64,000 nt of DNA from Clostridia bacterium (GTDB taxonomy: Bacteria; Bacillota; Clostridia; Oscillospirales; CAG-382), in the NCBI GenBank assembly GCA_017399965.1, contig JAFQAP010000003.1:40028-104027 (forward strand), given 5' to 3'. Position numbers and translations under genes: made by a program. Positions 8,629-52,515 of the stretch are shown one piece after another. Numbering within the stretch: position 1 is the stretch's first letter; each line of letters starts with the position of its first letter. Below the pieces are notes generated by a model. The model saw only the letters and a list, made by a program, of their open reading frames with translations. It was not told the origin of the DNA and did no database searches.

Positions 8629-8770
8629 AATGAGGAATGAGGAACGAGGAACCCACCCCAAAAACGCATAGCGTTTTCGGGGAACCCCGGGAATGAGAAA
8701 CGAGAAACTATGGTTGATTTTTGCCCCAAGGGGCAAAAATCTTCCTTTTCTTTTCACTCTTCACTCTTCA
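8629..8770. repeat. Family-A island inside the pgk-tpiA intergenic space
   Basis: In order: AATGAGG heptads, the CCCC..GGGG hairpin (8656-8682, reverse form), GATTTTTG-CCCCaaGGGG-CAAAAATC (8716-8741), then TCACTCT heptads. The pgk stop codon (8768-8770) lies in the last heptad. Confidence 0.85.
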
Positions 8771-9973
8771 CTGCTTGTCGTTAAGACAAGCTATGCCGGG
8801 CAGTTCCAAACCTTCAAGAAATTCGAGGGATGCTCCGCCGCCGGTGGAAATGTGGGTGATCTTATCGCCGAAGCCGAGAGTCTGGCAAGCTGCTGCGGAA
8901 TCGCCGCCGCCTACGATAGTGATAGCGTCGGAATCTGCAAGCGCCTGTGCAACTGCCTTGGTGCCTACTGCGAGAGTGGGATTTTCAAATACGCCCATAG
9001 GTCCGTTCCAGATAACGGTCTTTGCGCTCATAACAGCGTTTGCAAACAGCTCTCTGGTTGCGGGACCGATATCAAGACCCTGCATATCCTCGGGGATAGC
9101 GTCTGCGGAAACGGTAACGGTTTCGATCTCTGCATCAATAGGATCGGGGAAGGATTTTGCGCAAACGGTGTCTACGGGGAGAAGAAGCTTTACGCCCTTT
9201 TCCTCTGCTTTTTTCATCATTTCTACGCAGTAATCGAGCTTGCTTTCGTCGAGCAGGGACTTACCGATACCCTTACCCTGAGCCTTGAGGAAGGTATATG
9301 CCATACCGCCGCCGATGATGAGAGTATCGACCTTTTCAAGCAGGTTGTTTATAACGTTAAGCTTATCGGAAACCTTTGCGCCGCCGAGAATAGCTACCAA
9401 AGGTCTGTCGGGATCGGCAAGAGCCTTACCCATAACGGTAATCTCTTTGTTTATAAGATATCCGCATACTGCAGGGAGGTAATCAGCTACACCTGCGGTG
9501 GAAGCGTGTGCTCTGTGTGCGGTACCAAAAGCATCGTTTACATAGATATCTGCCAAAGAAGCCAGCTTTTTGGCAAATTCGGGATTGTTCTTTTCCTCTT
9601 CTGCGTGGAAGCGAACATTCTCAAGCAGCATACATTCGCCTGCTTTGAGAGCTGCAGCCTTTGCAACTGCGTCTTCGCCTACAACGTCCTTTGCCAGAGC
9701 AACTTCGATACCGAGGCACTCGGAAAGGCGGGCTGCAACGGGAGCGAGAGTGTACTTCATGTTGAATTCACCCTTGGGTCTGCCAAGGTGGGAGCAAAGA
9801 ATTACTGCCGCGCCGTTTGCAAGGAGGTATTTGATGGTGGGAAGTGCGCCCTGAATACGGTTATCGTCTGTGATAACGCCGTCCTTAAGGGGTACGTTGA
9901 AATCGCAGCGAACAAGAACTTTTTTGCCCTGAACGCTGATATCCTCTACGGATTTCTTATTTACGTTGGTCAT
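8768..9973 (-). CDS. pgk: Phosphoglycerate kinase
   Basis: 401 aa from the ATG at 9973, with GAGGTG 7 nt upstream. The track start at 9982 is a GTG inside that RBS. Contains the motifs [10 protein letters not shown] and STGGGASLE. Confidence 0.95.
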
Positions 9974-10043
9974 TTTATTCACCTCATAAATTTATTTCTT
10001 TTCAATTAATTATCTTACCATATTATGCCGATAAATGCAAGAG

Positions 10044-11444
10044 TTATTTGAACTTTTCGGCTGTTTGTTCCATTTGCGCGTCCTGCCAGCGGATATATTT
10101 GCCCAGGTCTATATTATCCGTTACGGAAGTGGCAATAAGCTCTCTTCCCACGCTGTTTATATTGTACACGGATGAATACAGCTCGGTAAGGGGATAGTGA
10201 ACTGTGTTGAACACCTCATACATCATCACGGTGTTTGCGTTATCGGAGGAATTGTGGGTGATATAATATCTGTGCAGGGTGGGTTCTATCTCACGGGAGG
10301 CGAGGAGCCAGGCGGAAAGGACAAGTCCTGCGCTGTAGCTGTCTTCGTTTGCCTTGGGTACGGCGATGCAAAGCGCTTCTGTGACGGGGCTATAGTAGTT
10401 TTCCTGCTCGGCAGAGGTTTTGGGCATAGGGAGTATCTCCCAATCGAAGCCGTCTATTTTGTTTTCGCCTAAAAATTGGTTGAAATAGGTTACGCAAAAC
10501 AGCACCTTTTGGTCCAAAAATGCCTGTTTTGAATTTACGCCCGAGGATTCCGTAAGCTTTGTACTGCTTTCCATAAGCTTTTTGGCGGCGGCGGTGGCTT
10601 GCTTGCCCAGCTCGTAATCGAACTCCGCCTTCAACGGCTTGCCCATGGTTTCCCCAAAGTATTTAATTCCGGAACCGTTCCAGAATACGTTGGTAAGGCT
10701 CTTTGTGTCCAGCCCGATAGCTGTATAGCCGAATATATCTGTTTCTATATCTCCCGTAGGTTTGCCTGCCACGGTGGATACCGCATTTATATATTCAAAC
10801 ATCTTTTCAACGGTCCAGGTGCCGTCGTCAACGCAGTATGCGGGGTCACGCATACCTTTTGCCTTTATCAGATCTCGGTTTGCGTAAACCACAAGGGAGT
10901 TTTGCTGGGTAAAGTTAAAAGCGCCCGTAAGCATAAACAGAGAATTGTTTATAGTCTGCTCCTCGGCTTCGCCGTTCAGCGCCTTTGCCGCTTCGGAAAA
11001 ATAGGGCAGCGACCACATATTTGTAAACAGCCCGTTGACAGATGCCGTCGCACCGTCCTTGGAGGGCATAATTACGATATCGGGGCAGTTTTCCCCGCCA
11101 TCCATAGCTTTCTTTATTTCCGCAGCCGTCTTTTTTTCGATAACTATTGTGGTATCAAACTTATTTTCGATAGAATCTATACGTTCCTGCATAATTTTCT
11201 TTAATGCGGTGTCGTATGCATATGCGGGGTCTGCAACGGAAAGGTCGGTGGTCCATATAACCGTTTCGGCACCTTCAAACTGACCGTCAGGTAACACAGC
11301 CAGCGGATCTGCGGGCAACGACGATTCTTCTTTTTGCACGGTCGATGTTTCTTCGGATATATCTCCGCTTGTGTTTTGCGTTTCTCCTCCCGCGCAGGAC
11401 ACCAAAAGAATGCAGGAGAGAAGTATGGTAAATAGTTTCTTCAT
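10044..11444 (-). CDS. Putative extracellular solute-binding lipoprotein (orphan; no adjacent permease genes)
   Basis: 466 aa from MKKLFTILLSCILLVSCAGG (lipobox). The 35 upstream codons of the track ORF are translated repeat sequence. General resemblance to family-1 sugar-binding proteins only. Confidence 0.45.
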   Translation of the reverse strand: MKKLFTILLSCILLVSCAGGETQNTSGDISEETSTVQKEESSLPADPLAVLPDGQFEGAETVIWTTDLSVADPAYAYDTALKKIMQERIDSIENKFDTTIVIEKKTAAEIKKAMDGGENCPDIVIMPSKDGATASVNGLFTNMWSLPYFSEAAKALNGEAEEQTINNSLFMLTGAFNFTQQNSLVVYANRDLIKAKGMRDPAYCVDDGTWTVEKMFEYINAVSTVAGKPTGDIETDIFGYTAIGLDTKSLTNVFWNGSGIKYFGETMGKPLKAEFDYELGKQATAAAKKLMESSTKLTESSGVNSKQAFLDQKVLFCVTYFNQFLGENKIDGFDWEILPMPKTSAEQENYYSPVTEALCIAVPKANEDSYSAGLVLSAWLLASREIEPTLHRYYITHNSSDNANTVMMYEVFNTVHYPLTELYSSVYNINSVGRELIATSVTDNIDLGKYIRWQDAQMEQTAEKFK

Positions 11445-11460
11445 ATACACTCCGGTAATT

Positions 11461-11620
11461 GTTTCACGTGAAACAAAAAGAAGAGAAGAGAGAAGAGAGA
11501 AAAGAGAAAAGAAACGGAAGATTTTTGCCCGAAAGGCAAAAATCAACATTCATTCCTCGTTCCTCGTTCCTCATTCCTCATTCGTTTGCGCGAAGCGCAA
11601 ACGCTGTTTCACGTGAAACA
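11461..11620. repeat. Family-A island
   Basis: A GTTTCACGTGAAAC palindrome sits at both ends. Between them are a GA-rich arm, GATTTTTGCCcgaaaGGCAAAAATC (11520-11544), CATTCCT/CGTTCCT heptads and TTTGCGC-gaa-GCGCAAA. Confidence 0.85.
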
Positions 11621-11723
11621 TTGATTTTCTACCTATATAATATATTATAGTTGCTTCATAGTCAATGGCAAAAATGTAAACAAAAAGCCTTCCGCTAAGG
11701 AAGGCTGTGTTTGTATGGGGTGA

Positions 11724-12104
11724 TTATTCGGAAACGGTTTCGGAAACTGCGTCGGAAGCTTCTTTCTCGGTTTCGGAAACGTCCTTGGATTCATCAACTA
11801 CGGAAGTATCGGAAACTTCAACCTTGGAAGTTTCGTTTTTGGAAGTCTCGTCCTTGGGCTCGTACTGAGCAAAGAAGAGAGCGAGAACAGAAAGAGCGAA
11901 AACAACGCAAGCGATTATGGTGAGCTTGTTTATAAATGCTTCTTTGGAAGAAGACTTGTTGCGTTCATAATAAGAACCGCCGTTGCCGCCGGTGATAACA
12001 CCGGACATACCCTTTTTGCCGTTGTTGAAAAATGCGATAAGTACGATAACTGCCAGTGCGGCTACAAAAGCTATGATGCCGAGAGTCCAAGTAAGTGCGT
12101 TCAT
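11724..12104 (-). CDS. secG: Preprotein translocase subunit SecG with an acidic C-terminal extension
   Basis: 126 aa. Two TM helices are separated by a Gly-rich loop (GKKGMSGVITGGNGGSYY), as is typical of SecG. GGAGG RBS. Confidence 0.6.
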   Translation of the reverse strand: MNALTWTLGIIAFVAALAVIVLIAFFNNGKKGMSGVITGGNGGSYYERNKSSSKEAFINKLTIIACVVFALSVLALFFAQYEPKDETSKNETSKVEVSDTSVVDESKDVSETEKEASDAVSETVSE

Positions 12105-12279
12105 TTATATTTTCCTCCGAAAAGCCGTGAATTTACGGCTTGTTTTTCTTTTTTTATCTTGCCCTGCGTCCCTTTTCGGTGCGCAAACGGGCACTTTGGT
12201 ATCATAGCACAAACCCGAAGATTATGCAATACCTATGTAAAAAATTAATAAAATGTTCACAAATTATTAATATTTACCC

Positions 12280-13758: not shown

Positions 13759-13835
13759 GGTGTTTGCTTCCTTATAGTTATATATGTTCATTATACAAAA
13801 CCCAAGAGGAATTGTCAATATACAAAAGTATACAC

Positions 13836-13871
13836 AAGAAAACACCTTCGGTACTTGGTAACCGAAGGTGT
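13836..13871 (-). terminator. Rho-independent terminator
   Basis: ACACCTTCGGT...ACCGAAGGTGT stem followed by a T-run on the - strand, directly after the stop at 13878. Confidence 0.7.
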
Positions 13872-13877
13872 AACGCT

Positions 13878-14726
13878 TTATTCAATTATATTTTCAACAC
13901 CGAAGAGGGCGAGAAGCTCTGTTATACGGCCGCGGGTGGCAAGGGCATCGTTTTCGGGAGAAGATTCGTCGGGAATAAGGTTTGAATACATGTAGTTTCC
14001 GAAATCAAAATCATCGGGGTTGCCGAAATAGCCCATATAATACTTGTTTTTGTTGGGGTTTTCTTCTTTTCCGTCGGTAACAAGCAGGTCGGTTTTATCT
14101 TGGGCGCGTAAAACACCCAGATATCTTGCGTGGAATGCGGTTACGTTAAAATCCGCAATAACCTCGGCAGTAAAGGGCTGTTCCTCAAACACGGTGTTAT
14201 AAAAATTTTCTGACGTGCCGAAATCTGTTTCCAGCACCAAAACCAAGGAATTATCCGAAATACCGCCGTCGTATGAGATAAGCACCAGCGTTTCCTTGCC
14301 GCTTTCGTCTATGGCGAGAAAATACATCACATAAGGCTCTTTAGTGGAAAAAGACAAGGTGATATCGGTGTTTTTTATGTTTCTTTCGTCCTGCGCGACG
14401 CTGTCTGCGGGCGGGAGATCCCCCGGCACGGGCTCACCGGATGGCTCGGTCTGTGAGGGAACGCGCTTCCCCTCGAAGTTGTTTTCCGTAAGAAAACGGT
14501 ATATGCTGTTTTCGGGGCACACCCAGTCCTTGCTTACCCCGCCGTCCTCGGCAAAATAATCTATGGCGGGAACGGTAACGGAATTTTCATTCACGCTTTC
14601 TTCGGGTAAAGAAGTGCCCGAGCCGTTGTTGCCCGCATCGGGCAGCTTTGCGGGTTTGTTTGCCTGACAGGCGCAAAAGGTCAAAGTAAATGCAAAAATC
14701 AAAACCAAAATAACCGTTTTTTTCAT
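13878..14726 (-). CDS. Hypothetical lipoprotein
   Basis: 282 aa. Signal peptide plus lipobox FTLTFCAC. AAGGAG RBS. Confidence 0.7.
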   Translation of the reverse strand: MKKTVILVLIFAFTLTFCACQANKPAKLPDAGNNGSGTSLPEESVNENSVTVPAIDYFAEDGGVSKDWVCPENSIYRFLTENNFEGKRVPSQTEPSGEPVPGDLPPADSVAQDERNIKNTDITLSFSTKEPYVMYFLAIDESGKETLVLISYDGGISDNSLVLVLETDFGTSENFYNTVFEEQPFTAEVIADFNVTAFHARYLGVLRAQDKTDLLVTDGKEENPNKNKYYMGYFGNPDDFDFGNYMYSNLIPDESSPENDALATRGRITELLALFGVENIIE

Positions 14727-23107: not shown

Positions 23108-23124
23108 GGTTCCTCCCTTTGGTA

Positions 23125-23244
23125 TTGATGAATGAGAAATGATGAATGTTGAATGATGAAAGATGAATGATGAATGATGGTTGATTTTTGTTCTGCGAAC
23201 AAAAATCTTCCGAAATTTCTCATTCCTCGTTCCTCATTCCTCAT
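23125..23244. repeat. Family-A island
   Basis: In order: ATGAATG/AATGAGA heptads, GATTTTTG-TTCtgcGAA-CAAAAATC (23183-23207), then CATTCCT heptads that end directly against the glyQS stop (23245-23247). Confidence 0.85.
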
Positions 23245-24642
23245 TTAAAACTTAAGTCTTTCGGAAATGTAATTTTTAACTTCACCGATAGGCATTCTCA
23301 CGCTTTCCATAGTATCGCGGTCGCGTACGGTCACGCAGCCGTCCTCAACGGATTCGAAATCGTATACCACGCAGAAGGGAGTACCGATCTCGTCCTGTCT
23401 GCGGTAACGCTTGCCGATACTGCCGGCTTCGTCATATTCGCACATAAAATCGGAGCAAAGGTCATAGTATATCTCTTTTGCCTGCTCGCCCAGCTTCTTG
23501 GAAAGGGGAAGCACCGCGCACTTATAGGGTGCGAGAGCAGGGTGGAGACGGAGTACGTAACGGATATCTTCTTTTCCGTCTTTAGAAAGATCTTCCTCGT
23601 CGTAAGCATCAACAAGGAAAGCAAGCAGAACTCTGTCTGCGCCCAGAGAGGGTTCGATAACGTAAGGCACGTATTTTTCGCCATTTTCGGGGTCGAAATA
23701 CGAAAGATCCTCGCCGGAATGGGCAGAATGTGCCTTAAGGTCGAAATCCGTTCTGGAAGCAACGCCCCACAGCTCGCCCCATCCGAAGGGGAACATAAAC
23801 TCAAAGTCGGTGGTAGCGTTGGAATAGTGAGCCAGTTCCTTGGGGTCGTGGTCACGCATACGGATATTTTCGGGGTTTATGCCCAGATTTACAAGCCAGT
23901 TATAGCAATAATCCTTCCAGTATACGAACCAATCAAGCTCGGTGCCGGGCTTGCAGAAGAATTCCAATTCCATCTGCTCGAATTCACGGATACGGAAAAT
24001 AAAGTTGCCGGGGGTGATCTCGTTTCTGAAGGATTTGCCGACCTGCGCAACACCGAAGGGAACCTTGCGGCGGGTGGTACGCTGAATGTTCTTGAAGTTT
24101 ACAAAGATGCCCTGCGCGGTTTCGGGACGGAGGTATACCTCTGCCTGGCTGTCCTCGGTAACGCCCTGGAAGGTCTTGAACATCATATTAAACTTGCGGA
24201 TGGGAGTAAAATCGCACTTGCCGCAGGTGCAGGTAACGCCCTTTTCAACGATATAATTGTACATTTCGTCGTTGGACATACCGTCAACGTGCATTTCGAT
24301 ACCGTTTTCTTTGTTCCATTTTTCAATAAGCTGGTCTGCACGGTGGCGCATTTTACAGCTCTTGCAGTCGATAAGAGGATCGTTGAAGTTAACAACGTGT
24401 CCCGATGCAACCCAGGTCTCTCTGTTCATAAGAATAGCGGAATCCAAGCCTACGTTGTATCTGCTTTCCTGCACGAACTTTTTCATCCAGGCGCGCTTGA
24501 TGTTGTTTTTAAGCTCTACGCCCAAAGGGCCGTAGTCCCAGGCGTTTGCCAGACCGCCGTATATTTCGCTGCCGCTGTAAACAAATCCTCTGTTTTTACA
24601 AAAGGCAACGATCTTTTCCATTGTTTTTTCGTTGTTGTTCAT
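23245..24642 (-). CDS. glyQS: Glycine--tRNA ligase (dimeric class II, GlyQS)
   Basis: 465 aa from [20 protein letters not shown], with a GGGAGAAAG RBS. Class II motifs and a C-terminal anticodon-binding domain. The track N-terminus (24714) runs through the promoter. Confidence 0.95.
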
Positions 24643-24720: not shown

Positions 24721-24842
24721 CGATGAACTAAAGAAAACGATGAACTATAAACTATGAACTATGAACTTCGGTAGCTTTTTTCGCGTTTTACGCGAAAAAA
24801 GGTTTCCATTAGTTCCTCGTTCCTCGTTCCTCGTTCATAGTT
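24721..24842. repeat. Repeat island with ATGAACT / GTTCAT and CGTTCCT words
   Basis: In order: ATGAACT heptads x4, the hairpin TTTTTTCGCG-tttta-CGCGAAAAAA, CCTCGTT heptads, then GTTCATAG. Confidence 0.8.
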
Positions 24843-27004: not shown

Positions 27005-27426
27005 AAAAAATACCAATGGGAGCGCGTTCATTCGGCGCAGAACTAAAAACGCAAAAATTATAAATAGTTCTGTTTAGCGAATCTCCACAATGTAGGGCGG
27101 GGGTTTACTCCCGCCGCTCTAATAACACATTAATAGGTAAAAAATTTTCCGACGAAAATCGTCTTTAAAATTTTATTTTATTTGCGTTTTTATAGAAGCT
27201 TTTACTTCGCTAGCTGTAGATTACTACAGCACGCTCGTAAAAGACTTCTTCTGCATCCAAATGCTCCGCGTCCTTCAGATTTTGAGAACTACAGCCGGTA
27301 GATTTCGAAGAAATTAATCAATAGTTTTTTGCATTTTTGCAAAAAACTTACCGAAATTTCTCATTCCCGGGGTTCCCCGAAAACGCTATGCGTTTTTGGG
27401 GTGGGTTCCTCATTCCTCATTCATCA
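27005..27426 (+). repeat. Family-B composite repeat (27013-27325) followed by a family-A island (27325-27426), inside the ABC cluster
   Basis: Aligns with 39005-39310. Followed by TTTTTTGCA-ttt-TGCAAAAAA, the CCCC..GGGG hairpin (27375-27401) and CATTCCT/CATTCAT heptads that abut the stop at 27427. Confidence 0.85.
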
Positions 27427-30535: not shown

Positions 30536-31657
30536 ATGGCAAAAATCGCAATACTCGGCTTCGGCGTGGTAGGTCAGGGCGTATACGAGGTTTTAAATAC
30601 CAATTCCCGTCTTATAACCGCCCGCACGGGAGAAGAGTTTATTATAAAACGCATACTGGATAAAAGAGTTTTCCCCAACCATCCTTTGGGGGACAGAGTA
30701 ACGGCAGATCTTAACGATATACTTAACGATACGGAAATTTCCGTAGTTGCGGAGACTATGGGCGGCACTTCCCCCGCTTATGAATTTTCCCTTGCTCTTA
30801 TCCGCGCAGGCAAAAGCGTGGTCACCTCCAACAAAGCGGTGGTTGAAAAGCACGGAAAAGAGCTTTGCGCAGAGGCGGCAAAACACGGCGTGGCATATCT
30901 TTACGAAGCTTCCGCAGGCGGCGGAATTCCCGTAATACATCCTATTCTCCACTGTCTTGCAGGTAACGATATTCAAAAGGTGTGCGGTATACTTAACGGC
31001 ACCACCAATTATATACTCACAAAAATGCGGGACGAGGGCCTTTCCTTTGATACCGCTTTAAAGCAGGCGCAGGCACTCGGCTATGCGGAGGCGGACCCTA
31101 CGGCAGACGTTTCCGGCGCAGATGCGGCGCGTAAAATATGCATATTGGCGTCCCTTGCCTTTAATACCCATATCGCACTGGAAAACGTATCCGTTATGCA
31201 GGGTATCGAGGACGTGACGGAAGAAGACGTTATCAAAGCGGAAAAGCGGGGATACGCCGTAAAGCTTATCGGCTTCGGTGAAAAAACGGGAGATACCGCG
31301 CGGCTGTTCGTTGCCCCCTGTCTTGTAAGCAAAAAGACGGTGCTGGGCATAACCGATGACGTTATCAACGCCGTTTCCGTTTACGGCGATTGCGTGGGCG
31401 GAGTGACCTTCCGCGGCAGAGGCGCAGGCGGAAAAGCCACCGCGTCCGCCGTTGTTTCGGATATTCTTGAAGCACACAGCGGCAAATATGTTAAAGAATA
31501 TAAAAACGAAAAAGTATCCTTCCTCAACGTGAACGAAGGAAAGGATATGCTGTATATACCCGAAACCGACGAATTTATACAGCCCGATACGCTGGAAAAT
31601 CAGTTGAAGGCTGTAGGAAGTAAGAAGTATTATAGGGTAGTTGAGATAGCGGAATGA
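30536..31657 (+). CDS. hom: Homoserine dehydrogenase (no obvious C-terminal ACT domain)
   Basis: 373 aa with the motifs ILGFGVVGQG, VVTSNKA, EASAGGGIP, GILNGTTNYIL and GYAEADPTADVSGADAARK. Confidence 0.9.
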   Translation: MAKIAILGFGVVGQGVYEVLNTNSRLITARTGEEFIIKRILDKRVFPNHPLGDRVTADLNDILNDTEISVVAETMGGTSPAYEFSLALIRAGKSVVTSNKAVVEKHGKELCAEAAKHGVAYLYEASAGGGIPVIHPILHCLAGNDIQKVCGILNGTTNYILTKMRDEGLSFDTALKQAQALGYAEADPTADVSGADAARKICILASLAFNTHIALENVSVMQGIEDVTEEDVIKAEKRGYAVKLIGFGEKTGDTARLFVAPCLVSKKTVLGITDDVINAVSVYGDCVGGVTFRGRGAGGKATASAVVSDILEAHSGKYVKEYKNEKVSFLNVNEGKDMLYIPETDEFIQPDTLENQLKAVGSKKYYRVVEIAE

Positions 31658-31775
31658 GGAAGGAGGAATGAGGAATGAGGAATTACGGAAGATTTTTGTT
31701 CTGTGAACAAAAATCAACCATCATTCATCATTTAGCATCGCGTTCGCGATGCGTCGCATTCATCATTTCTCATTG
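31652..31775. repeat. Family-A island
   Basis: The hom stop TGA (31655-31657) lies inside the first AATGAGG word. Followed by GATTTTTG-TTCtgtGAA-CAAAAATC (31691-31715), CATTCAT heptads and GCATCGC-gttc-GCGATGC. Confidence 0.85.
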
Positions 31776-34516: not shown

Positions 34517-34667
34517 AGTGAAGAGAGACGAGAGAAAAGAGAAGAGAAACGGAAGATTTTTGCAAAGCGTTGCAAAAATCAACATTCATTCCTCATTCCT
34601 CATTCCTCATTCCCGGGGTTCCCCGAAAACGCCATGCGTTTTTGGGGTGGGTTCCTCATTCCTCATT
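34517..34667 (+). repeat. Family-A island
   Basis: In order: a GA-rich arm, GATTTTTG-CAAagcgTTG-CAAAAATC (34555-34580), CATTCCT heptads, the CCCC..GGGG hairpin with a CAT loop (34621-34647), then CCTCATT. The stop of the - strand gene (34663-34665) lies in the last heptad. Confidence 0.85.
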
Positions 34668-35415
34668 TGCTTTTCTTCTTATCCATAAAATACCATGGTA
34701 GATATGCGAGCACAAACAGCGTGGTCACCGCCGCCATCATCACGGCGAAGCGGAGCGCGAAATTGGGAGGAAGGATATCGAGTATCGAGGGGGTATCCTC
34801 GGGGCGCGCCATAAACAGATAGTTTGCGCCGGGGCCTATAATACGGTTTGCCGCAAAGGCAACGGCGGTAAGCACTCCCAACAGCCCGTAGGCTTTAAAA
34901 GCGCCTTTTACCGTGGGGCGCATCTTATGTACGAACACCATATAGAATACGGAAACGTAACCCAGCGTGTGCTCCAGCCAGAACTGGTAGTATCTGAAGC
35001 GGGTGGGACCGGTAAACGAAATTACCGTGGGAGTTATGAGAGCGAATACAGACCCTGCAAACAGCCAGAAATATACTATATCAAAAAGGCTTTGGCTTTT
35101 GCCGATAACCATAAAGCTGCAAAAAACGACCGCCCAGCCGCACACGGTGATGGGGAGATGGTCCACGGGGTTGGGATCCAGCGAAGGAATGCCCACAAGC
35201 CGCCAGTAATAGGACATTTCGGAAATTATAAGCATAAACGCAAGGGTATAGCGGAATGCTTTTTCATGCTTGCACGCCTGTATTTTATCCTTAAACCGCC
35301 ATATAAGCAAAATTACTCCCACGGCGATAAGTATGGGAAGAAAATGGGCAAGAGAAAAGTTTGCAAATTCCTCTGTTTCCCCTTTTCCGAAAAAGTAATT
35401 AAAAAATTCCTTCAT
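34663..35415 (-). CDS. Integral membrane protein, TIGR02206/YwaF-like
   Basis: 250 aa with about 7 TM helices. The N-terminus FSLAHFLPILIAVGVILLIW resembles the YwaF family. GGAGGA RBS. Confidence 0.5.
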   Translation of the reverse strand: MKEFFNYFFGKGETEEFANFSLAHFLPILIAVGVILLIWRFKDKIQACKHEKAFRYTLAFMLIISEMSYYWRLVGIPSLDPNPVDHLPITVCGWAVVFCSFMVIGKSQSLFDIVYFWLFAGSVFALITPTVISFTGPTRFRYYQFWLEHTLGYVSVFYMVFVHKMRPTVKGAFKAYGLLGVLTAVAFAANRIIGPGANYLFMARPEDTPSILDILPPNFALRFAVMMAAVTTLFVLAYLPWYFMDKKKSK

Positions 35416-35485: not shown

Positions 35486-35606
35486 AAATGAGGAACCCGT
35501 TTCGGGAGAGAAGAGATAAGAGAGAAAAGAGAAAAGATTTTTGCAAAGCGTTGCAAAAATCAACCATCATTCCTCATTCATCATTCCTCATTCATCATTC
35601 CTCATT
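35486..35606 (+). repeat. Family-A island (same hairpin core as 34555-34580)
   Basis: In order: an AATGAGG word, a GA-rich arm, GATTTTTG-CAAagcgTTG-CAAAAATC (35536-35561), then CATTCCT/CATTCAT heptads abutting the stop at 35606-35608. Confidence 0.85.
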
Positions 35607-36037
35607 TATCTTTTCTTTGCCGCTTTCTTTATTATATCCGCTTTTGTCTGCTTTTTTCCTGCGGCGATGTATCCTCCCAGCAAAGGGGCAAGCGCCGCCG
35701 CAAGGGGAGGGAGCACACGGGCGAGCAGGTTTTCGCTTTCGGGGAAAAAGGCGCATAATACCCCCAGCAAAACAAGGGTAGTCACTGCGGCGTAAACTCC
35801 GCTTATTAATGCGCCCCCCAGCTTTACCGCCAAAAATCCCCCTGCCATACCGCCCAAACCTATGGCTATACACGCTGCGGTAAGGATATGGGAAGCGGGG
35901 TCTGCACTTCCCGCAAACGCCGCCGCAAGACACAGCATTAACAAAACAGATACAAAGGGCACGGCAACACCGCCGATAAGTCCGCCCAACAGAGGGTTTA
36001 AGGTGAGTTTATTTTCTTTTTTCATCTTTGCGCACAT
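35606..36037 (-). CDS. Small Gly-rich membrane protein (TIGR04086/YrzE-like)
   Basis: 143 aa (or 139 aa from MKKENK at 36025). Three to four Gly/Ala-rich TM helices. Confidence 0.4.
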   Translation of the reverse strand: MCAKMKKENKLTLNPLLGGLIGGVAVPFVSVLLMLCLAAAFAGSADPASHILTAACIAIGLGGMAGGFLAVKLGGALISGVYAAVTTLVLLGVLCAFFPESENLLARVLPPLAAALAPLLGGYIAAGKKQTKADIIKKAAKKR

Positions 36038-37811: not shown

Positions 37812-38195
37812 AACACTGTAGATCGAAACGCAACGTGTTTAGAAGTTTTACTGCAGCAATTTCCCAAATGTAGGGCGGGTGGCTTGCCCCCGCCGTACCA
37901 TTTACCAAATAAGGTAAAAATTCCGTAGAAAAATCTACGGAATTTTCTTTTTTATTGCGTTTCTACGCATTTTCGCTTCGCTGGCTGTAGAATACTACAG
38001 CTCCCGCTTGCGAAAAAGCGTTCTACAGCGTTTTACCATCGCTTTCGCTCGGTTTTCTGCAGACATTACGTATCAAAAACAATTACACGGTTTTTTGCAC
38101 CGCAAAAAACTACCGAAGTTTCTTGTTTCTCGTTTCTCGTTCCTCGTTGCGGGGTCCCCAAAAATGCGGATGCATTTTTCGGGGTGCCCCTTGCT
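37812..38195 (+). repeat. Family-B composite repeat (37812-38070) followed by a family-A-type island (38070-38195)
   Basis: Contains tgtaGGGCGGG...CCCGCC, CCGTAGA-aaaa-TCTACGG and GCTGTAGaatACTACAGC. Followed by TTTTTTGC-acc-GCAAAAAA, GTTTCTC/GTTCCTC heptads and the CCCC-AAAAATGC..GCATTTTT-GGGG variant (38156-38184). Confidence 0.85.
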
Positions 38196-38341: not shown

Positions 38342-38369
38342 TTGAATTTATGCAAAACTGTGTTATAAT
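38342..38369 (+). promoter_or_regulatory. Promoter of the large ncRNA
   Basis: TTGAAT (38342-38347), 16-nt spacer, TGtTATAAT (38361-38369). Confidence 0.55.
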
Positions 38370-38375
38370 GAATAG

Positions 38376-38995
38376 GCGATGGCGCAGTATTCTAGTTAGC
38401 GCGGCGTTTTTGAAGGCGTGCCTAAAAATACGTCAAACGGCAGATCGATGAAGCTCCTGGTGTTTGCTTTGTACGCCCAGTTCAGGGTGGATGCTGGGAG
38501 AGTGGACTGTGGGCGCACCCCAACGGCATGGGGCGGCTAACCCACTTTCCTTTGAGGCTTTTTCTTCGTGGCGGACCTTAACACATGGAAAAGGGGGCTA
38601 CGGGATTAAGATTAAACCTATCACGCGGTACGACCATTACAGATGCTGTGGATAGATGTAGCCGGCTTTGAGTGGGTCATGGCGGATAACGTTCATGTCG
38701 GGATGAGATTAGCTACCGAACCTCGAATAAATCGCGTTTGAAATCATGCCTGCAAAAGAAGATAAGAAAACGTTTTGCGCTATGGCGGAAAACGCCTAGA
38801 CTGTTATCGTGGCAGATAAACACGTATGGGCACGGTGCGGATTACAGTGCGGACTCATAGGCAATCAAGTCGCGGAACCGGTAACGCTCCGCCTCGGTCT
38901 TTAATGGGGAACCCCTTCATCGGCGACGAGAAGGAGACCGCGGGGAAATCCTACTTGACCGTAAGCCGCAAGGTCTACGTACCGTGCCGCCATTA
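38376..38995 (+). ncRNA. ole: OLE (ornate, large, extremophilic) RNA candidate
   Basis: About 620 nt with no credible ORF and no repeat-family content. It is richer in G+C than the surrounding spacers and has many local helices. It has its own promoter and lies upstream of a 4-TM oapA-like gene followed by dxs-tlyA-nadK-argR-recN, which is the classic OLE synteny. The ends are approximate. Confidence 0.65.
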
Positions 38996-38996
38996 T

Positions 38997-39310
38997 TCAA
39001 AAAGCCATTGGGAGCGCGTTCATTCGGCGCAGAACCAAAAACGCAAAAAATAATATATAGTTCTGTTTAGTTATTTTCCGAATGTAGGGCGGGTGGCTTG
39101 CCCCCGCCGTTTTAATAGTAGATTATAAGGTAAAAATTTTTCCGACGAAAATCGTCTACAAAATTTTATTTTATTTGCGTTTTTGTAGCCGTTTTCGCTC
39201 GGGAGGCAGTAGATTACTACAGCTCCCCGCTCGCGAAAAAGGCTTCTGCTTCCAAATGCTCCGCGCCCTTCAGACTTTTTGTTCTACAGCCATTACATAT
39301 CAAAAACACT
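38997..39310 (+). repeat. Family-B composite repeat between OLE and oapA
   Basis: Aligns nearly end to end with 27013-27325. Confidence 0.85.
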
Positions 39311-45386: not shown

Positions 45387-45404
45387 TACAATCACGGGTT
45401 TTTT
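45374..45404 (+). terminator. Rho-independent terminator overlapping the recN stop
   Basis: ACCCGTGA-tacaa-TCACGGGT stem followed by TTTTTT. Confidence 0.8.
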
Positions 45405-45528
45405 GAATGAGGAATGAGGAATGCGCCGCGTTGCTTCGCACCGCTAAATGAGGAATTTCGGAAGATTTTTGTTCGTTACGAACAAAAATCAACCATCATT
45501 TCTCATTCATCATTCATCATTCCTCATT
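45405..45528 (+). repeat. Family-A island
   Basis: In order: AATGAGG heptads, the aatgCGCCGC...GCTAAATGA module, GATTTTTG-TTCGttaCGAA-CAAAAATC (45464-45490), then CATTTCT/CATTCAT/CATTCCT heptads. Confidence 0.85.
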
Positions 45529-45559
45529 AAAAAATGCCGCCAAAAAGGCGGCGTTTTTT
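45529..45559. terminator. Bidirectional terminator hairpin
   Basis: AAAAAATGCCGCC-aaaaa-GGCGGCGTTTTTT. Confidence 0.75.
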
Positions 45560-46682: not shown

Positions 46683-46685
46683 TTT

Positions 46686-47825: not shown

Positions 47826-48919
47826 TTTTTCTTTTTTCCTCCGAACACCCACTCACGCTGCAGAGTAAAGCTGAGTATAAACAGCACGGTATCCACCGCC
47901 GCTTTTATAAGGGTGATAACGATCTCTTTTGTGCCGTTGGGCAGTAATATGGTTATTCCGCCTACGGATGCGCCGGAAATAAGCATTATAAGTATTACCA
48001 GCACGTAATATTTAAGCATTGTGTGCTTTGCGCCCGTCTTCTTTGCAAAAACAAGACGGCTGTTTACAAAATAGTTGTAAAGGGAAGATATAATTCTTGC
48101 CGCTGCGGTACAGCAGGCGGTGCATATAAACTTTGCCTCTGCCGTTTCTGAAAACTTGGATAAAAACAAAAAAGAAAACAGAGTAAACAAGGCAAGGTCA
48201 ATAGCCGTTGCGGAAAGGGAAGAAAACGCATATCCGAATATCTGCTTATAGATCATAAAAGAATCTTTTAAAGGGTTAAAATGGGATGTTTTGTTTTCTT
48301 CTATGTAAACCGTTTCAATGGAATTTTCTGCAAAGGGTATGCCGTTATCCTTCAAGGCAAGCAGCATATTCGTTTCGTATTCAAATCTGTCCCCCTTAAC
48401 AGCCATAAGAATGTCTAAAAATTCTATGGGGATAGCGCGGAGTCCCGTCTGGGTATCGGTTATCCGTATTCCGCACAGATATTTGAATACAAAAGCGGTC
48501 ATCTTGTTGCCGAAAACGCTTCTTGCGGGGATACCGGGCAGGTTGAAATTACGTGCGCCCAAAATAATTTTGTTTTCCCCCAGCATACGCATTGCGCAGG
48601 AAAGCACGTCTTCGGGGCGGTGCTGTCCGTCCCCGTCCACCGTCACCACGCCCAAAGCCTCGGGGCGTGTTTTTTTAACGTATGCAAAGGCGGTTTTAAG
48701 TCCCGCGCCCTTGCCGCGGTTTATCCAATGGTTTATTACGGTACAGCAGGGGTACTCTTCGGGGGAAGGGAAGTTTTGCTCGCACTCCGTTTTGCTTCCG
48801 TCGTTTATTATAACAATATCTGTAAATCCCGCATCCATAAGCCCCTGAACCGTCTTTTTCAGTTTTTCATCAGGGTTGAGAGAGGGTATAATTACGGTTA
48901 TCTTTGAGATAGAAGACAT
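47822..48919 (-). CDS. Glycosyltransferase family 2 fused to a C-terminal GtrA-like membrane domain
   Basis: 365 aa with VIIPSLNPDEKL, IVIINDGS and TVDGDGQH (DxD). The C-terminal four TM helices resemble GtrA. Confidence 0.8.
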   Translation of the reverse strand: MSSISKITVIIPSLNPDEKLKKTVQGLMDAGFTDIVIINDGSKTECEQNFPSPEEYPCCTVINHWINRGKGAGLKTAFAYVKKTRPEALGVVTVDGDGQHRPEDVLSCAMRMLGENKIILGARNFNLPGIPARSVFGNKMTAFVFKYLCGIRITDTQTGLRAIPIEFLDILMAVKGDRFEYETNMLLALKDNGIPFAENSIETVYIEENKTSHFNPLKDSFMIYKQIFGYAFSSLSATAIDLALFTLFSFLFLSKFSETAEAKFICTACCTAAARIISSLYNYFVNSRLVFAKKTGAKHTMLKYYVLVILIMLISGASVGGITILLPNGTKEIVITLIKAAVDTVLFILSFTLQREWVFGGKKKK

Positions 48920-48937
48920 AAGTTTTCTCCTTTATTT

Positions 48938-49070
48938 AATGAGGAATGATGAATGCGACGCGATGCAAAGCATCGCTAAATGATGAATGATGGAAACCTT
49001 TTTCACGCTTCGCGTGAAAAAGCTACCGAAATTCCTCATTCCTCATTCCTCATTCCTCATTTTCATCATT
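48938..49070. repeat. Family-A island
   Basis: In order: AATGAGG/AATGATG heptads, GCGATGC-aaa-GCATCGC, CTTTTTCACGC-ttc-GCGTGAAAAAG, then CATTCCT heptads. The pyrR stop (49066-49068) lies in the last word. Confidence 0.85.
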
Positions 49071-49608
49071 CCAGCCCTGCGGGCTCTAATATTGCTACTT
49101 CCGTTTTTCCGTCCAATTCTTTGACACGCACCGCAATTTTTTCTTTGCGGGAGGTGGGCACGTTTTTACCCACGTAATCGGCACGTATGGGCAACTCTCT
49201 GTGGCCTCTGTCAATAAGGGCGGCAAGGCGTATGGCGGCAGGTCTTCCGCAAAGCATTACCGCCTCAATGGCGGCGCGTACCGTTCTGCCGGTGTATAAA
49301 ACGTCGTCCACCAGCACCACCGTCTTTCCTTCCACCGCAGTCTTTAAAGGGGTTTTTTCGGTCTTGCGTATGTTTCCGTTATCATCCCGGAAGGGGGAAA
49401 CGTCCAGCTCCTCCACGGAAACCTCTACCCCGTAGGAGTTTTTTATACGCATGGCTATTCGGTTTGCAAGGGGAAGCCCTCTGCGGCGTATACCCACAAG
49501 GCATATGGAGGATATGTCCTCGTTTTTTTCCACTATCTCGTGGCTTATGCGGGTGAGCGAGCGTTCCAGTGCCTGCTCGTCCAGCAGTATGGTCTTTTCT
49601 CTGTACAT
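49066..49608 (-). CDS. pyrR: Bifunctional pyr operon regulator / uracil phosphoribosyltransferase PyrR
   Basis: 180 aa. PRPP motif VVLVDDVLYTGRTVRAA and IDRGHRELPI. Confidence 0.9.
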   Translation of the reverse strand: MYREKTILLDEQALERSLTRISHEIVEKNEDISSICLVGIRRRGLPLANRIAMRIKNSYGVEVSVEELDVSPFRDDNGNIRKTEKTPLKTAVEGKTVVLVDDVLYTGRTVRAAIEAVMLCGRPAAIRLAALIDRGHRELPIRADYVGKNVPTSRKEKIAVRVKELDGKTEVAILEPAGLE

Positions 49609-49786
49609 ATATTCCGCCTTTAAGGTATATAATTTTACTTCATAACAGATATTATACTGTTTTTTTAATATAAGTCAACACATTTCTTACATATTAATAA
49701 TTAATTAACAGCTATTTTCGTTGACAAACGAGGGCTTTTGTAATATAATATTATATCTGTAAAATGCGGAAGGAGGCGTTTTCGTT

Positions 49787-50575
49787 TTGGGCAGATGTGT
49801 TTTTGTAACATCCTTTAAAGGCGGTGTGGGAAAAAGCTTTGTTTCCGCCAATCTTGCGGGTGCATTAACAAATCTGGGCAAAAAAGTTCTTGTTGCGGAC
49901 GGGGACTTAGGTATGCGCAGTATGGATATCCTGCTGGGCTGTGAAAACGCTTCGCTTTTTGATATCAAGGACGTTATATCCGGCGCTTGTCCCGTGGAAA
50001 AAGCGATAATTAAAGCAGAAAAAGCCGGCTTTCCCGATTTCATTCCCGCACCCCAGACCTATGACGGATCTACGCTGGATAAAGAGCGCACCCACGCATT
50101 GTTTACATACCTTAAAAGCGTGTACGATTACGTGCTTATAGATTCCTCTGCGGAATATTCGCCCTATTATTCGCTTCTTGCATCCTGCGCGGATACGGCG
50201 GTCATCGTTACCGCCCATCAGTCCACGGCGGTGCGTGCGGCAGAAAAAACCGCATCGCTTCTTGCAAAGGAAGGGTTAAAGGAGCAATATCTGGTAATAA
50301 ATATGTTCCGCAAAAAAGAAGCGGAAAAAGGCTTGCTGCCCGACCCTGCGGATATTATCCTGAATTCCGCCGTACCTCTTTTGGGAATTGTCCCTTGGGA
50401 TAAAAATGCGGCGACAGAGGCGGAAAAGGGCGGAATTGCTTTTTGCAGCCGCAAAGGCAAAGCATATTCCTTTGAAGCGGCGGCAATAAATATAGCCTAC
50501 CGTCTGTGCGGAAACGAGGTTCCCTTGTTTAAAGGGGTTTACCGCACCTTAAGAAGAAAATTCTATCTTAAATAA
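49787..50575 (+). CDS. MinD/ParA-family P-loop ATPase (MinD-like; no minC or minE nearby)
   Basis: 262 aa with a TTG start 9 nt after GGAAGGAGG. Deviant Walker A SFKGGVGKS and DGDLGMRSMD. Confidence 0.7.
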   Translation: MGRCVFVTSFKGGVGKSFVSANLAGALTNLGKKVLVADGDLGMRSMDILLGCENASLFDIKDVISGACPVEKAIIKAEKAGFPDFIPAPQTYDGSTLDKERTHALFTYLKSVYDYVLIDSSAEYSPYYSLLASCADTAVIVTAHQSTAVRAAEKTASLLAKEGLKEQYLVINMFRKKEAEKGLLPDPADIILNSAVPLLGIVPWDKNAATEAEKGGIAFCSRKGKAYSFEAAAINIAYRLCGNEVPLFKGVYRTLRRKFYLK

Positions 50576-50610
50576 TAAAATATTAAAGGCAAGAAAGGAC
50601 GATTATTATT

Positions 50611-51009
50611 ATGGAAATAGCAATTATCGCCAACGATAAGAAAAAAGAGCTTATCACCGAATTCTGCATAGCATATTGCGGAGTGCTTGCCAAGCACAAC
50701 ATCTGTGCAACAGCTACGACAGGAAAATACATAAGCGAAGCAACGGGACTCAAAGTTACCCGTATGCTTGCAGGCTCTCACGGCGGAGCAGAGCAGATCG
50801 CTGCCCGTATAGCGTATAACGAGATCGACCTGGTTATCTTCCTGCGCGACCCCAATACGGATGCAGAGTATATAGATACCACGCTTCAGGTCATCCGTCT
50901 GTGCGATAGCCATAACATCCCCGTTGCAACCAATATCGCAACTGCGGAGGCGCTTATTCTGGCGCTCGGCAGAGGAGACCTTGATTGGAGAGAGATTCAG
51001 AGAAAATGA
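50611..51009 (+). CDS. mgsA: Methylglyoxal synthase
   Basis: 132 aa. Contains IAIIANDKKKEL, ATATTGKYI and GSHGGAEQIAA. The stop TGA lies inside the first AATGAGG word of the next island. Confidence 0.85.
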   Translation: MEIAIIANDKKKELITEFCIAYCGVLAKHNICATATTGKYISEATGLKVTRMLAGSHGGAEQIAARIAYNEIDLVIFLRDPNTDAEYIDTTLQVIRLCDSHNIPVATNIATAEALILALGRGDLDWREIQRK

Positions 51010-51105
51010 GGAATGATAAATGATAAATGATGAATGATGGTTGATTTTTGTTCGCAGAACAAAAATCTTCCGTAATTTCTCATTCCTCATTCCTCATTCA
51101 TCATT
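51004..51105 (-). repeat. Family-A island (inverted relative to 52389-52515)
   Basis: In order: AATGAGG/AATGATA/AATGATG heptads, ATGGTT, GATTTTTG-TTCgcaGAA-CAAAAATC (51043-51067), CTTCCG, then CATTCCT/CATTCAT heptads. Confidence 0.85.
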
Positions 51106-51128
51106 AATTTTTACGGAGTAAAAATTCT

Positions 51129-52388
51129 ATGGAACAAATAAAAAAACCTCGGGGAACACTTGATATTCTTCCCGAGCAGACTGCCGCCTGGCAGTATATC
51201 GAAAAAATAATACGCAAAAAGTGTCTTGAATACGGCTTCGGCGAGATACGCTTCCCCACCTTTGAAGCTACCGAGCTGTTCTCCCGCGGTGTGGGCGATA
51301 CTACCGACGTGGTGCAAAAGGAAATGTACACCTTTAAGGATAGGGACGACCGCAGTCTGTCCTTGCGTCCGGAGGGAACGGCGTGCGTTGTCCGCAGTAT
51401 GCTGGAAAACGGTCTTTACGCAGGCGCAATGCCCTTAAAGCTGTATTATCTTACCAATTTCTTCCGCTACGAAAAGCCCCAGGCAGGCAGAAGCAGAGAG
51501 TTTTTCCAGTTCGGAACAGAGCTGTTCGGCTCCGAATCCCCTGCGGCGGATGCAACGGTCATCTCCCTTGCATACAGCGTGTTCAAGGAATTGGGACTTA
51601 ATAATGTGGTGCTTCACATAAATTCCGTGGGCTGTCCCGGCTGCCGTCCCAAATACAGAGAAGCACTTGTTGAATATCTTGGCGGATACACGGAGGGTCT
51701 TTGCCCCACCTGTCTTGAAAGACTGGGCAAAAATCCCCTTCGCGTGCTGGATTGCAAATCTCCCGTATGCTCGGAAATAGCAAAAAACGCACCCAAGACC
51801 ACACAGCACCTTTGCGAGGATTGCGAACAGCATCTTAAAGCGCTTACGGATATTCTTGATGCATCGGGAATTCCTTACGTTATAGATTCGGGTATCGTAA
51901 GAGGCTTGGATTATTACACCGGCACGGTGTTTGAGTTTATAGATGAACGTATCGGCGCCCAGTCCACCGTTTGCGGCGGCGGCAGATACGACGGACTCGT
52001 TTCCCAGCTTGGCGGACCGCAGATGTCGGGCGTAGGCTTTGGTATGGGTATTACCCGTCTTATCGCCTGCCTTGAAACGGAGAATTTGTTAAAGAGCGTG
52101 GATACCGCACCGGATATCTATCTTGCTCCCGCGGAAAAGAGCGTGTATGCAAAAGTATTTACTCTTTGCGAACAGCTCCGCGCTATGGGTATAAAGGCGG
52201 AAACCGACCTTTGCTCCCGCAGTATAAAAGCGCAAATGAAATATGCGGATAAAATTCACGCCCGCTTTACAGCCGTTATCGGCGGAACAGAGACGGAAAC
52301 CGGCGTAGTTACGGTCAAGAATATGCAAGACGGCGGCAGGGCGGAAGTCGCACTTACGGCGGCAGACATTGCTAACGCAATAAAATAA
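51129..52388 (+). CDS. hisS: Histidine--tRNA ligase
   Basis: 419 aa. Class II motifs (RFPTFE, FRYEKPQAGRSREF, GGGRYDGL) and a C-terminal anticodon-binding domain. Confidence 0.95.
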   Translation: MEQIKKPRGTLDILPEQTAAWQYIEKIIRKKCLEYGFGEIRFPTFEATELFSRGVGDTTDVVQKEMYTFKDRDDRSLSLRPEGTACVVRSMLENGLYAGAMPLKLYYLTNFFRYEKPQAGRSREFFQFGTELFGSESPAADATVISLAYSVFKELGLNNVVLHINSVGCPGCRPKYREALVEYLGGYTEGLCPTCLERLGKNPLRVLDCKSPVCSEIAKNAPKTTQHLCEDCEQHLKALTDILDASGIPYVIDSGIVRGLDYYTGTVFEFIDERIGAQSTVCGGGRYDGLVSQLGGPQMSGVGFGMGITRLIACLETENLLKSVDTAPDIYLAPAEKSVYAKVFTLCEQLRAMGIKAETDLCSRSIKAQMKYADKIHARFTAVIGGTETETGVVTVKNMQDGGRAEVALTAADIANAIK

Positions 52389-52515
52389 ATGAGGAATGAG
52401 GAATGCGACGCTCTTGCAAGCAAGAGCTAAATGAGGAATTTCGGAAGATTTTTGTTCGCAGAACAAAAATCAACCATCATTCATCATTCATCATTCATCA
52501 TTTCTCATTCCTAAT
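52389..52515 (+). repeat. Family-A island between hisS and aspS
   Basis: In order: AATGAGG heptads, GCTCTTGC-aa-GCAAGAGC, CGGAAG, GATTTTTG-TTCgcaGAA-CAAAAATC (52447-52471), AACCAT, then CATTCAT heptads. Confidence 0.85.

Follow-up and report, generated by a model that had tools for sequence, protein, structure and literature searches.

Tagged perfect palindromes in the gene spacers of an uncultured gut Clostridia lineage, a candidate family of repetitive extragenic palindromes with in-place turnover

Tagged hairpins and their composite elements

The stretch of DNA analysed here (the window) comprises 64,000 nucleotides of a Clostridia bacterium genome (GenBank assembly GCA_017399965.1, contig JAFQAP010000003.1, positions 40,028 to 104,027 of the forward strand), and its gene spacers hold repeated hairpins with GATTTTTG and CAAAAATC as their outer arms. 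The host is an uncultured, OLE-RNA-bearing gut Clostridia lineage; the window encodes a dockerin protein and a full-length OLE RNA (38363-39009, plus strand, 386 bits), directly upstream of which lie a hairpin and GTTTCTC heptamers (38090-38148). The original prediction listed nine GATTTTTG-core-CAAAAATC hairpins, and an exact search with the pattern GATTTTTG-N(9-11)-CAAAAATC recovered all nine, with the positions and cores it had given, compared with none in 100 dinucleotide-preserving shuffles. Its description of the flanks as asymmetric held for most copies: GGAA precedes eight of the nine (GGAAG when the first G of the stem is counted), and AACCAT stands on the other side of seven. The exceptions are copy 35536, which is preceded by AAAA, and copies 11520 and 34555, which have AACATT instead of AACCAT. 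The list of nine is an incomplete family, since five more hairpins (at 561, 24775, 27323, 38090 and 48998) share the tag and surroundings and have other stems.

All 14 hairpins in the window are perfect and take the form N-T5/6-GC core-loop-core'-A5/6-N'. When read on one strand, each carries a tag, cGG(A/T)AG, immediately 5′ of the stem, mostly with ..CCAT 3′ of it. The five sibling hairpins and their relatives have the tag GGTAG, and eight of the nine GATTTTTG copies and the GCTTTTTGCAC hairpins have GGAAG. The 14 hairpins are the following.

561..581, minus strand: sibling hairpin GTTTTTTGC-gga-GCAAAAAAC, GGTAG tag, followed by a Q module, two P modules and heptamers (to about 723)
8716..8741, minus strand: GATTTTTG-type hairpin, tag-strand core CCCC-tt-GGGG, in the pgk-tpiA spacer
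11520..11544, plus strand: GATTTTTG-type hairpin, core CC-cgaaa-GG, in the spacer between secG and gene 10044-11444, between two TGTTTCACGTGAAACA palindromes
23183..23207, minus strand: GATTTTTG-type hairpin, tag-strand core TTC-gca-GAA, between a class II aminoacyl-tRNA synthetase gene and a GtrA-like gene
24775..24801, plus strand: sibling hairpin CTTTTTTCGCGT-ttt-ACGCGAAAAAAG, GGTAG tag, inside arrays 24736-24836
27323..27348, minus strand: sibling hairpin AGTTTTTTGCA-aaaa-TGCAAAAAACT, GGTA tag, then a P module and heptamers (to about 27428)
31691..31715, plus strand: GATTTTTG-type hairpin, core TTC-tgt-GAA, between hom and tRNA-Glu
34555..34580, plus strand: GATTTTTG-type hairpin, core CAA-agcg-TTG, 3′ of the TMEM164-like gene, adjoining a terminator
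35536..35561, plus strand: same hairpin as the 34555 copy, with a degenerate tag, AAAAG, 5′ of the TMEM164-like gene
38090..38110, minus strand: sibling hairpin GTTTTTTGC-ggt-GCAAAAAAC, GGTAG tag, followed by GTTTCTC heptamers, just 5′ of the OLE RNA
45464..45490, plus strand: GATTTTTG-type hairpin, core TTCG-tta-CGAA, between two convergent terminators, 3′ of recN (a RecN-like SMC ATPase gene)
48998..49022, minus strand: sibling hairpin CTTTTTCACGC-gaa-GCGTGAAAAAG, GGTAG tag, inside arrays (about 48985-49061)
51043..51067, minus strand: GATTTTTG-type hairpin, tag-strand core TTC-tgc-GAA, in the mgsA-hisS spacer
52447..52471, plus strand: GATTTTTG-type hairpin, core TTC-gca-GAA, in the hisS-aspS spacer

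Of the 37 spacers that are 40 bp or longer, 14 contain one of these hairpins; with gene starts corrected, no hairpin falls within a gene. Their contexts include operon spacers (pgk-tpiA, mgsA-hisS and hisS-aspS), gene starts and positions past convergent terminators, and the tag strand is evenly divided both relative to transcription (6:6) and relative to the plus strand (7:7). Mechanical open reading frames and the public aspS gene call overrun the repeat elements (52403-52552 and 11445-11549), the true starts being at about 52553 for aspS and at 11444.

Pairing in the stems is strict. A tag-anchored, mismatch-tolerant search of the window and its relatives returned about 41 distinct hairpins with about 445 stem pairs, among which there were no G·T pairs and no mismatches. 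At least 17 distinct perfect stems occur across this set, with stems of 9-13 bp, loops of 2-6 nt and a total of 21-28 bp. In a MAFFT alignment of 31 distinct tag-strand sequences, the tag GG.A (G2, G3 and A5) and the T and A tracts are invariant. The structure pairs 91.2% of the cells of that alignment; shuffling lowers this to 82.2%, and sliding the partner columns to 44-56%. Its covariation score of 0.287 compares with 0.143 for shuffled alignments, none of 500 of which reached that value, and in five pairs both partners vary. Together, the perfect Watson-Crick pairing, the strand-symmetric design and the random orientation point to a palindrome at the DNA level or to templated generation of palindromes. 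We therefore argue that the constraint acts on DNA, or comes from how the palindromes arise, and not on a strand-specific RNA.

Each GATTTTTG copy is set between tandem 7-nt arrays, making a composite of 100-150 bp with the hairpin at its apex. Arrays 5′ of the hairpin are purine-rich (AATGAGG, AATGATG, AGAGAAG, GTGAAGA) and those 3′ of it pyrimidine-rich (ATTCCTC, ATTCATC), which is true on either strand because the layout is symmetric; in the nine copies purines account for a fraction of 0.5-1.0 of the left side and 0.17-0.38 of the right. Nearly all of the 14 tagged hairpins stand between arrays of this kind, and a tagged hairpin is present in 12 of the 13 spacers that have a 7-periodic run of at least 21 nt. 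The arrays are often accompanied by a P module, CCGGGGTTCCCCGAAAACGC.ATGCGTTTTTGGGGTGGGTT, which is always on the pyrimidine-array side of the hairpin; a Q module, made of TTA, a variable 8-bp stem and GTCGC, in which the ends are conserved and the stem covaries; and an R module, the palindrome GTTTGCGCGAAGCGCAAAC. Composites with a TTC core fold as single hairpins of 105-135 nt (DNA z of -4.6 to -8.3), whereas those flanked by AGAGAAG fold less well (z of -2.4 to -4.5). The composites of the nine GATTTTTG copies are listed here.

8627..8775, composite of 8716: heptamer arrays, P module and hairpin
11476..11604, composite of 11520: AGAGAAG arrays, hairpin, TCATTCC arrays and R palindrome
23124..23248, composite of 23183: one long hairpin, DNA z = -4.6
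31651..31774, composite of 31691: with a Q side hairpin, DNA z = -8.3
34518..34668, composite of 34555: with a P module
35486..35608, composite of 35536
45404..45530, composite of 45464: with a Q side hairpin, DNA z = -7.9
51003..51105, composite of 51043: DNA z = -5.9
52389..52521, composite of 52447: DNA z = -7.2; part of it, 52389-52495, is inverted in a relative

The P module forms a second repeat family, with copies at 627-709, 8650-8695, 27366-27407 and 34614-34655 and a P-like pair at 4526-4612; its stem position 5 is a conserved G·T when one strand is read and A·C when the other is, and its core shows compensatory changes in relatives. Q modules lie at 599-622, 31733-31758, 45423-45447 and 52406-52431, in either arm of the composite and in mirror orientation. 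The 11520 element, upstream of gene 10044-11444, is bracketed by two perfect 16-bp palindromes of sequence TGTTTCACGTGAAACA (11460-11475 and 11605-11620). These look like a paired operator.

A scan for promoter-like or terminator-like sites inside the elements found none, and a promoter reading was dropped on that ground. An intrinsic terminator is contradicted by the layout, as on either strand the core follows its T run and precedes its A run, opposite to the order in a terminator, and readings as integron attC sites or CRISPR repeats were set aside on anatomy. Rfam gave no match on the elements at gathering score; the only sub-threshold matches were to eukaryotic microRNA and small nucleolar RNA models of the long-hairpin type (E = 0.3-0.8). 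Other RNA features of the window include a Gut-1 RNA match at 5518-5588 (51.4 bits against a gathering score of 50) and a thiamine pyrophosphate riboswitch at 60747-60845, upstream of a thiT-like gene. No T-box leader precedes hisS; its GGAG Shine-Dalgarno (SD) sequence is placed in the loop of a small hairpin (51106-51126, AATTTTTAC-gga-GTAAAAATT) that relatives conserve with compensatory changes.

Contents of orthologous sites in related genomes

To compare sites between genomes we used a graded series of uncultured Clostridia metagenome-assembled genomes (MAGs) and contigs, which were gathered via homologues of HisS, the TMEM164-like protein and the carboxypeptidase. Identities below are to the window.

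L139: HisS 98% at the amino acid level
L124: HisS 95% at the amino acid level; hisS 90.5% at the nucleotide level
L133: TMEM164-like protein 95%
L140-145: HisS 93%
L125: HisS 88%
L136: carboxypeptidase 86%
L147: HisS 86%
L126: HisS 83%
L134: TMEM164-like protein 77%
L137: carboxypeptidase 70%

Seven further short contigs carry family members. Six are metagenomic, came from a scan with a 23-base pattern and added cores to the collection. The seventh, L146, is an IMG/VR contig classed as viral (GC 54%, from a higher-GC organism), in which 7150-7400 holds the family member GGAAG-GATTTTTGCCaaaGGCAAAAATC with symmetric TAGTGAA arrays. The bare hairpin pattern was too loose for use against genome contigs, giving at least about 120 chance matches in unrelated taxa; among the matches listed for it, L008 alone was a vague look-alike.

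The closest relative, L139, resembles the window strongly in sequence: hisS is 97.3% identical, third positions of codons for the same amino acid are about 95% identical and one spacer without an element is 98.3% identical. All four of the four sites that it shares with the window nevertheless differ in hairpin type, core, orientation or presence.

48998 site: CTTTTTCACGC hairpin with the tag on the minus strand in the window; GATTTTTG-CCaagGG with the tag on the plus strand in L139
mgsA-hisS site: GATTTTTG-TTC with the tag on the minus strand in the window; CTTTTTTCGCGT with the tag on the plus strand in L139
hisS-aspS site: core TTCgcaGAA in the window; core CGttttgCG in L139
thiT-downstream site (window 61578..61612, L139 15201-15339): arrays joined without an apex hairpin in the window; arrays plus a GCTTTTTGCAC hairpin in L139

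The difference downstream of thiT may be an excision or a gain of the hairpin. In the 3′ half of the hisS-aspS spacer, L139 (6091-6234) resembles L125 (11260-11405) and not the window, a likeness in sequence that suggests recombination between diverged lineages across the spacer.

In L124 the reverse complement of window positions 52389-52495 matches the hisS-aspS spacer at 106 of 107 positions, the specific Q stem included, meaning that a 107-bp element has been inverted in place. At the mgsA-hisS site of the same genome the left array is kept, and the apex hairpin and its junctions alone differ from the window, while at the 48998 site L124 has a hairpin swap in the direction opposite to that at mgsA-hisS. 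The segment between the two TGTTTCACGTGAAACA palindromes lies in reverse order and orientation in L136, with another core, and the pgk-tpiA element of that relative differs from the window in type and orientation. Both TGTTTCACGTGAAACA palindromes are also kept in L137, which is element-free and has a 37-bp unique spacer between them; the pair may be the inverted repeats for the inversion that separates the window from L136. Together, the dominant documented events are hairpin swaps and whole-element inversion. More distant relatives have little at these sites, with empty sites or no elements in L147, L137 and L134 and one degenerate copy in L126.

Neighbour identity and loop orientation

According to the original prediction, physically adjacent hairpins share cores, which would point to local spread or local gene conversion. 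For two pairs this stands: 34555/35536 (981 bp apart) and 51043/52447 (1404 bp apart) are the two closest pairs in the window. The third pair that it named, 8716/11520, is weak, with cores at an edit distance of 3. Permuting the cores over the positions gives p = 0.003 for summed distance and p = 0.056 for rank adjacency alone. A local effect is present in pairs closer than 1.5 kb, but core similarity and distance have no overall correlation in the window (Mantel r = 0.01), and if loop orientation is ignored, the core of 23183 equals that of 51043 and 52447 despite a separation of 28 kb. The hairpins that flank hisS are identical in the window strain only, as L139, L124 and L140 each have two different hairpins there. 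Likewise, L133 carries TTCcgtGAA and GTTTTTTGCggcGCAAAAAAC at the sites of the window's two identical CAAagcgTTG hairpins, which flank the TMEM164-like gene. Neighbour hairpins thus differ in every relative examined, making neighbour identity specific to the window strain. Such a pattern fits short-range copying or conversion, seen here in two cases.

The original prediction also described loops that are uncoupled from the flanks, as in a flip/flop exchange. Both comparisons on which it relied are correct: 51043 and 23183 have the same flank orientation and opposite loops (gca and tgc), and 51043 and 52447 have opposite flanks and the same loop. With the relatives added, TTC stems carry gca on the tag strand at three sites and tgc, tgt or cgt at five.

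Loop gca: 23183; 52447 (the same as L124:11335); L136:2772
Loop tgc: 51043; L124:1796
Loop tgt: 31691; L124:7849 (the same as L140:103)
Loop cgt: L133:764

The GCAC stems of L133 have loops agcc and ggct, which are exact reverse complements, and the window, L124 and L133 each contain a hairpin pair that is identical on one strand with the tags on opposite sides. Both loop orientations relative to the tag are therefore found in three genomes, in partial support of the uncoupling. The flip/flop account does not extend to the GTTTTTTGC type, in which loops gga, ggt and ggc all have one orientation, and no loop-only flip was found at any orthologous site compared. The clearest documented event remains the 107-bp inversion at hisS-aspS, where the loop flips with its flanks. 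Copying of the hairpin alone between oppositely oriented copies would account for the uncoupling as well as extrusion and resolution of a hairpin would. Loop inversion through the perfect arms, hairpin-only conversion and nested inversions are all candidates compatible with the present data.

It is also conceivable that no loop ever flips, and that the two orientations are old, separately amplified sub-lineages or point-mutation variants. The single orientation in the GTTTTTTGC type and the behaviour of the orthologous sites speak for this, but gca is the exact reverse complement of tgc with no position in common, each of the two is found at two to three independent sites, and agcc likewise is the exact reverse complement of ggct. 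By a rough estimate, chance would give such a match in about 1/64 of cases for gca/tgc and about 1/256 for agcc/ggct, and we regard this explanation as unlikely.

Recombinational turnover and its alternatives

Four features were absent from the original prediction: the heptamer arrays, the conservation of the tag, the existence of sibling hairpin types and the exchange of hairpins at fixed sites. With these included, our favoured reading, to which we give a probability of roughly 55%, is that the GATTTTTG hairpins are one subtype of a lineage-specific, GTAG/GAAG-tagged family of the repetitive extragenic palindrome (REP) type with fast recombinational turnover. The elements would occupy fixed intergenic sites whose contents change quickly, probably by copy-replacement. 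We propose that ectopic gene conversion or template switching, with the heptamer arrays and palindromic stems as homology, swaps the apex hairpins. The same process could invert whole elements between inverted arrays, make neighbours 1-1.5 kb apart identical and set the loop in either orientation relative to the tag. Where elements are transcribed, as in the pgk-tpiA and hisS-aspS spacers, a stable RNA hairpin is a likely side effect, as for REPs. A REP-associated tyrosine transposase (RAYT) may cut and copy the elements, a putative link that comes from L126, where a frameshifted RAYT remnant (11333-11800; NF047646, E = 7e-12) fills the hisS-aspS spacer in which relatives carry hairpin elements. 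A PDB sequence search with this remnant returned TnpA-REP only, at E = 0.3. A scan for RAYT relatives in viral contigs found none.

Several points weigh against this reading. The L126 remnant scores 45 bits where the NCBIfam cut-off is 80, Pfam gave no match for it and no family hairpins flank it, and a single tblastn search with it detected neither a RAYT nor any other HUH gene in the window and the retrieved loci. Comparison of the window with its relatives revealed neither a duplicated target site nor a clean footprint of excision. Six assemblies of one related strain (93% HisS identity, different samples) are identical in both hisS-flanking spacers, so the elements are stable within a clone on the sampled timescale. 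Homologous recombination between diverged lineages, reshuffling old spacer alleles, could mimic fast in-place turnover. The copy counts cover about 64 kb of this genome in the window and about 6 kb past its end. In classical REPs, G·T pairs are frequent and alternating REPs form bacterial interspersed mosaic elements (BIMEs), whereas the stems here have none and, in place of REP dimers or BIMEs, heptamer arrays surround a single hairpin. Finally, the GATTTTTG subtype is tagged GAAG, which falls outside the published REP tag variants GYAG, GYRG, GTRG and GTMG (PMC3733652).

A stronger form of the hypothesis is that an active hairpin-directed, single-stranded DNA recombination system, RAYT-like or other, recognises the GG(A/T)AG tag and the T5/A5 palindrome and replaces, inverts and copies hairpins, with the arrays generated or expanded in the same way. 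We hold this to be possible but doubtful. If true, such a system would act so fast that nearly every site differs between strains with about 3% divergence, and it would constitute a REP system of new architecture in Firmicutes with a measurable turnover rate.

Other explanations start from the same observations. The elements could be DNA sites that the host uses, as has been suggested for BIMEs, for example for gyrase, nucleoid proteins or chromosome organisation; they would be selected at fixed spacers, with turnover incidental. Occupancy is kept across strains while contents vary, the T-tract/A-tract geometry is constant across all stem types, and on both strands the arrays change from purine to pyrimidine bias at the hairpin, all of which suit such sites. 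Relatives at 70-86% protein identity, however, have no elements in the same spacers and no visible replacement, and the idea depends on a putative binding protein and is compatible with a selfish repeat as well; we think it rather unlikely. A reading as miniature inverted-repeat transposable elements was rejected, given that there is no target-site duplication, that the arrays are inverted in the TTC-core subfamily only and that the empty sites of L147 and L137 are not clean insertions.

The in-place inversion in L124, with its 106 of 107 matches, also brings to mind invertons, in which a site-specific invertase would flip the segment between inverted heptamer arrays and so alter expression of a neighbouring gene. 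Orientation varies between strains at the secG, pgk-tpiA, mgsA-hisS and 31691 sites too, and in the TTC-core subfamily the arrays are inverted repeats of each other. We judge invertons highly improbable nonetheless: the scan found no promoter-like site within the elements, about 40 window proteins scanned include no recombinase, the six independent assemblies of one strain show no orientation heterogeneity, and contents change by swapping as well as by flipping. In addition, an element that is nearly palindromic has few of its bases altered by inversion. Strand-specific functional RNAs (regulators, small RNAs, or SD/anti-SD sponges built from GAGG/CCTC heptamers) are very unlikely to the same degree. 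Copies within operons (pgk-tpiA, hisS-aspS) are necessarily transcribed, structure is strongly conserved with compensatory changes, and AATGAGG/CCTCATT units have SD-like and anti-SD-like cores. Against these stand the 6:6 orientation relative to transcription, the flipping between strains at the same site and the 0 G·U among about 445 pairs; copies 34555 and 45464 lie beyond the terminators of convergent genes, the AACTATG, GTGAAGA and AGAGAAG heptamers have no SD-like cores, and Rfam has no matching family.

To our knowledge, REP-type repeats have been studied nearly only in Proteobacteria, and their mode of spread is unsettled. Here uncultured gut Clostridia are found to carry a REP-like family whose palindromes are perfect and tagged and whose heptamer-array scaffold is unusual. 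In a graded series of public MAGs the same sites hold swapped, inverted, copied or absent units and local homogenisation is clear, which means that metagenomes already available allow direct measurement of how fast REPs turn over and of the tract structure. The elements also have practical consequences, in that they break assemblies, as judged from the short contigs of close relatives around these genes, and mislead gene callers, as with the over-extended aspS start.

Comparison with known repeat families

A full-text literature search (heptamer strings; heptamer plus Clostridia repeats) returned no description of this hairpin family, and its nearest likeness is to REPs. These are palindromes of 20-40 bp with 6-13-bp stems, loops of 2-3 nt in many families, a terminal GTAG and sub-families with complementary stem changes (Di Nocera 2013, PMC3733652). 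One REP group consists of perfect palindromes preceded by a conserved motif, which are recognised and processed by TnpA-REP (Corneloup 2021, PMC8266576). Like REPs of the GTAG superfamily, the elements described here are palindromes of 21-28 bp that are extragenic and dense, occur in both orientations and have strain-specific contents. They too have sub-families with complementary stem changes and a conserved motif at one foot of the hairpin, which reads GGTAG in the GTTTTTTGC and CTTTTTTCGCG types. They come from a Clostridia lineage, while the text of PMC3733652 makes no mention of Firmicutes or Clostridia. A further difference from REPs is the fixed T5-6/A5-6 tract in every stem.

In BIMEs, REPs alternate in orientation with fixed linkers, and pneumococcal BOX elements have the order boxA-(boxB)n-boxC. 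Like both, the composites are intergenic mosaics of modules: a palindromic unit stands together with other short conserved sequences, of which some are tandemly repeated, and content varies among strains. They differ in having 7-nt arrays that are symmetric about one apex hairpin. Membership of the BIMEs themselves was rejected, as each composite has one tagged hairpin and its flanks are 7-nt arrays and P, Q and R palindromes, not alternating REPs with linkers.

Loop inversions of hairpins between perfect inverted repeats occur as small inversions in chloroplast genomes and as flip/flop in parvovirus inverted terminal repeats, and quasipalindromes undergo template-switch mutagenesis. The hairpins here have in common with these a short asymmetric loop between perfect arms that is found in both orientations, with arms that templated copying would keep perfectly complementary. 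The documented event is, unlike in chloroplasts and parvoviruses, an inversion of a whole 107-bp element, seen between assemblies, and not a flip of the loop by itself.

The heptamer arrays have their own parallel in the short tandemly repeated repetitive (STRR) sequences of cyanobacteria and the GGGAATC-type arrays of Xanthomonas and Nostoc, which are confined to spacers, form inverted pairs and are of unknown function (Rehm 2015, PMC4692102). As in those arrays, tandem 7-nt units lie in spacers, occur as inverted pairs and vary in length and sequence between close relatives at the same sites. The published arrays are G-rich and have no tagged apex hairpin (PMC4692102), whereas those described here are A/G-rich opposite C/T-rich, with a hairpin in 12 of 13 spacers. 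What is unusual relative to known REPs is this heptamer-array scaffold around a REP-type hairpin.

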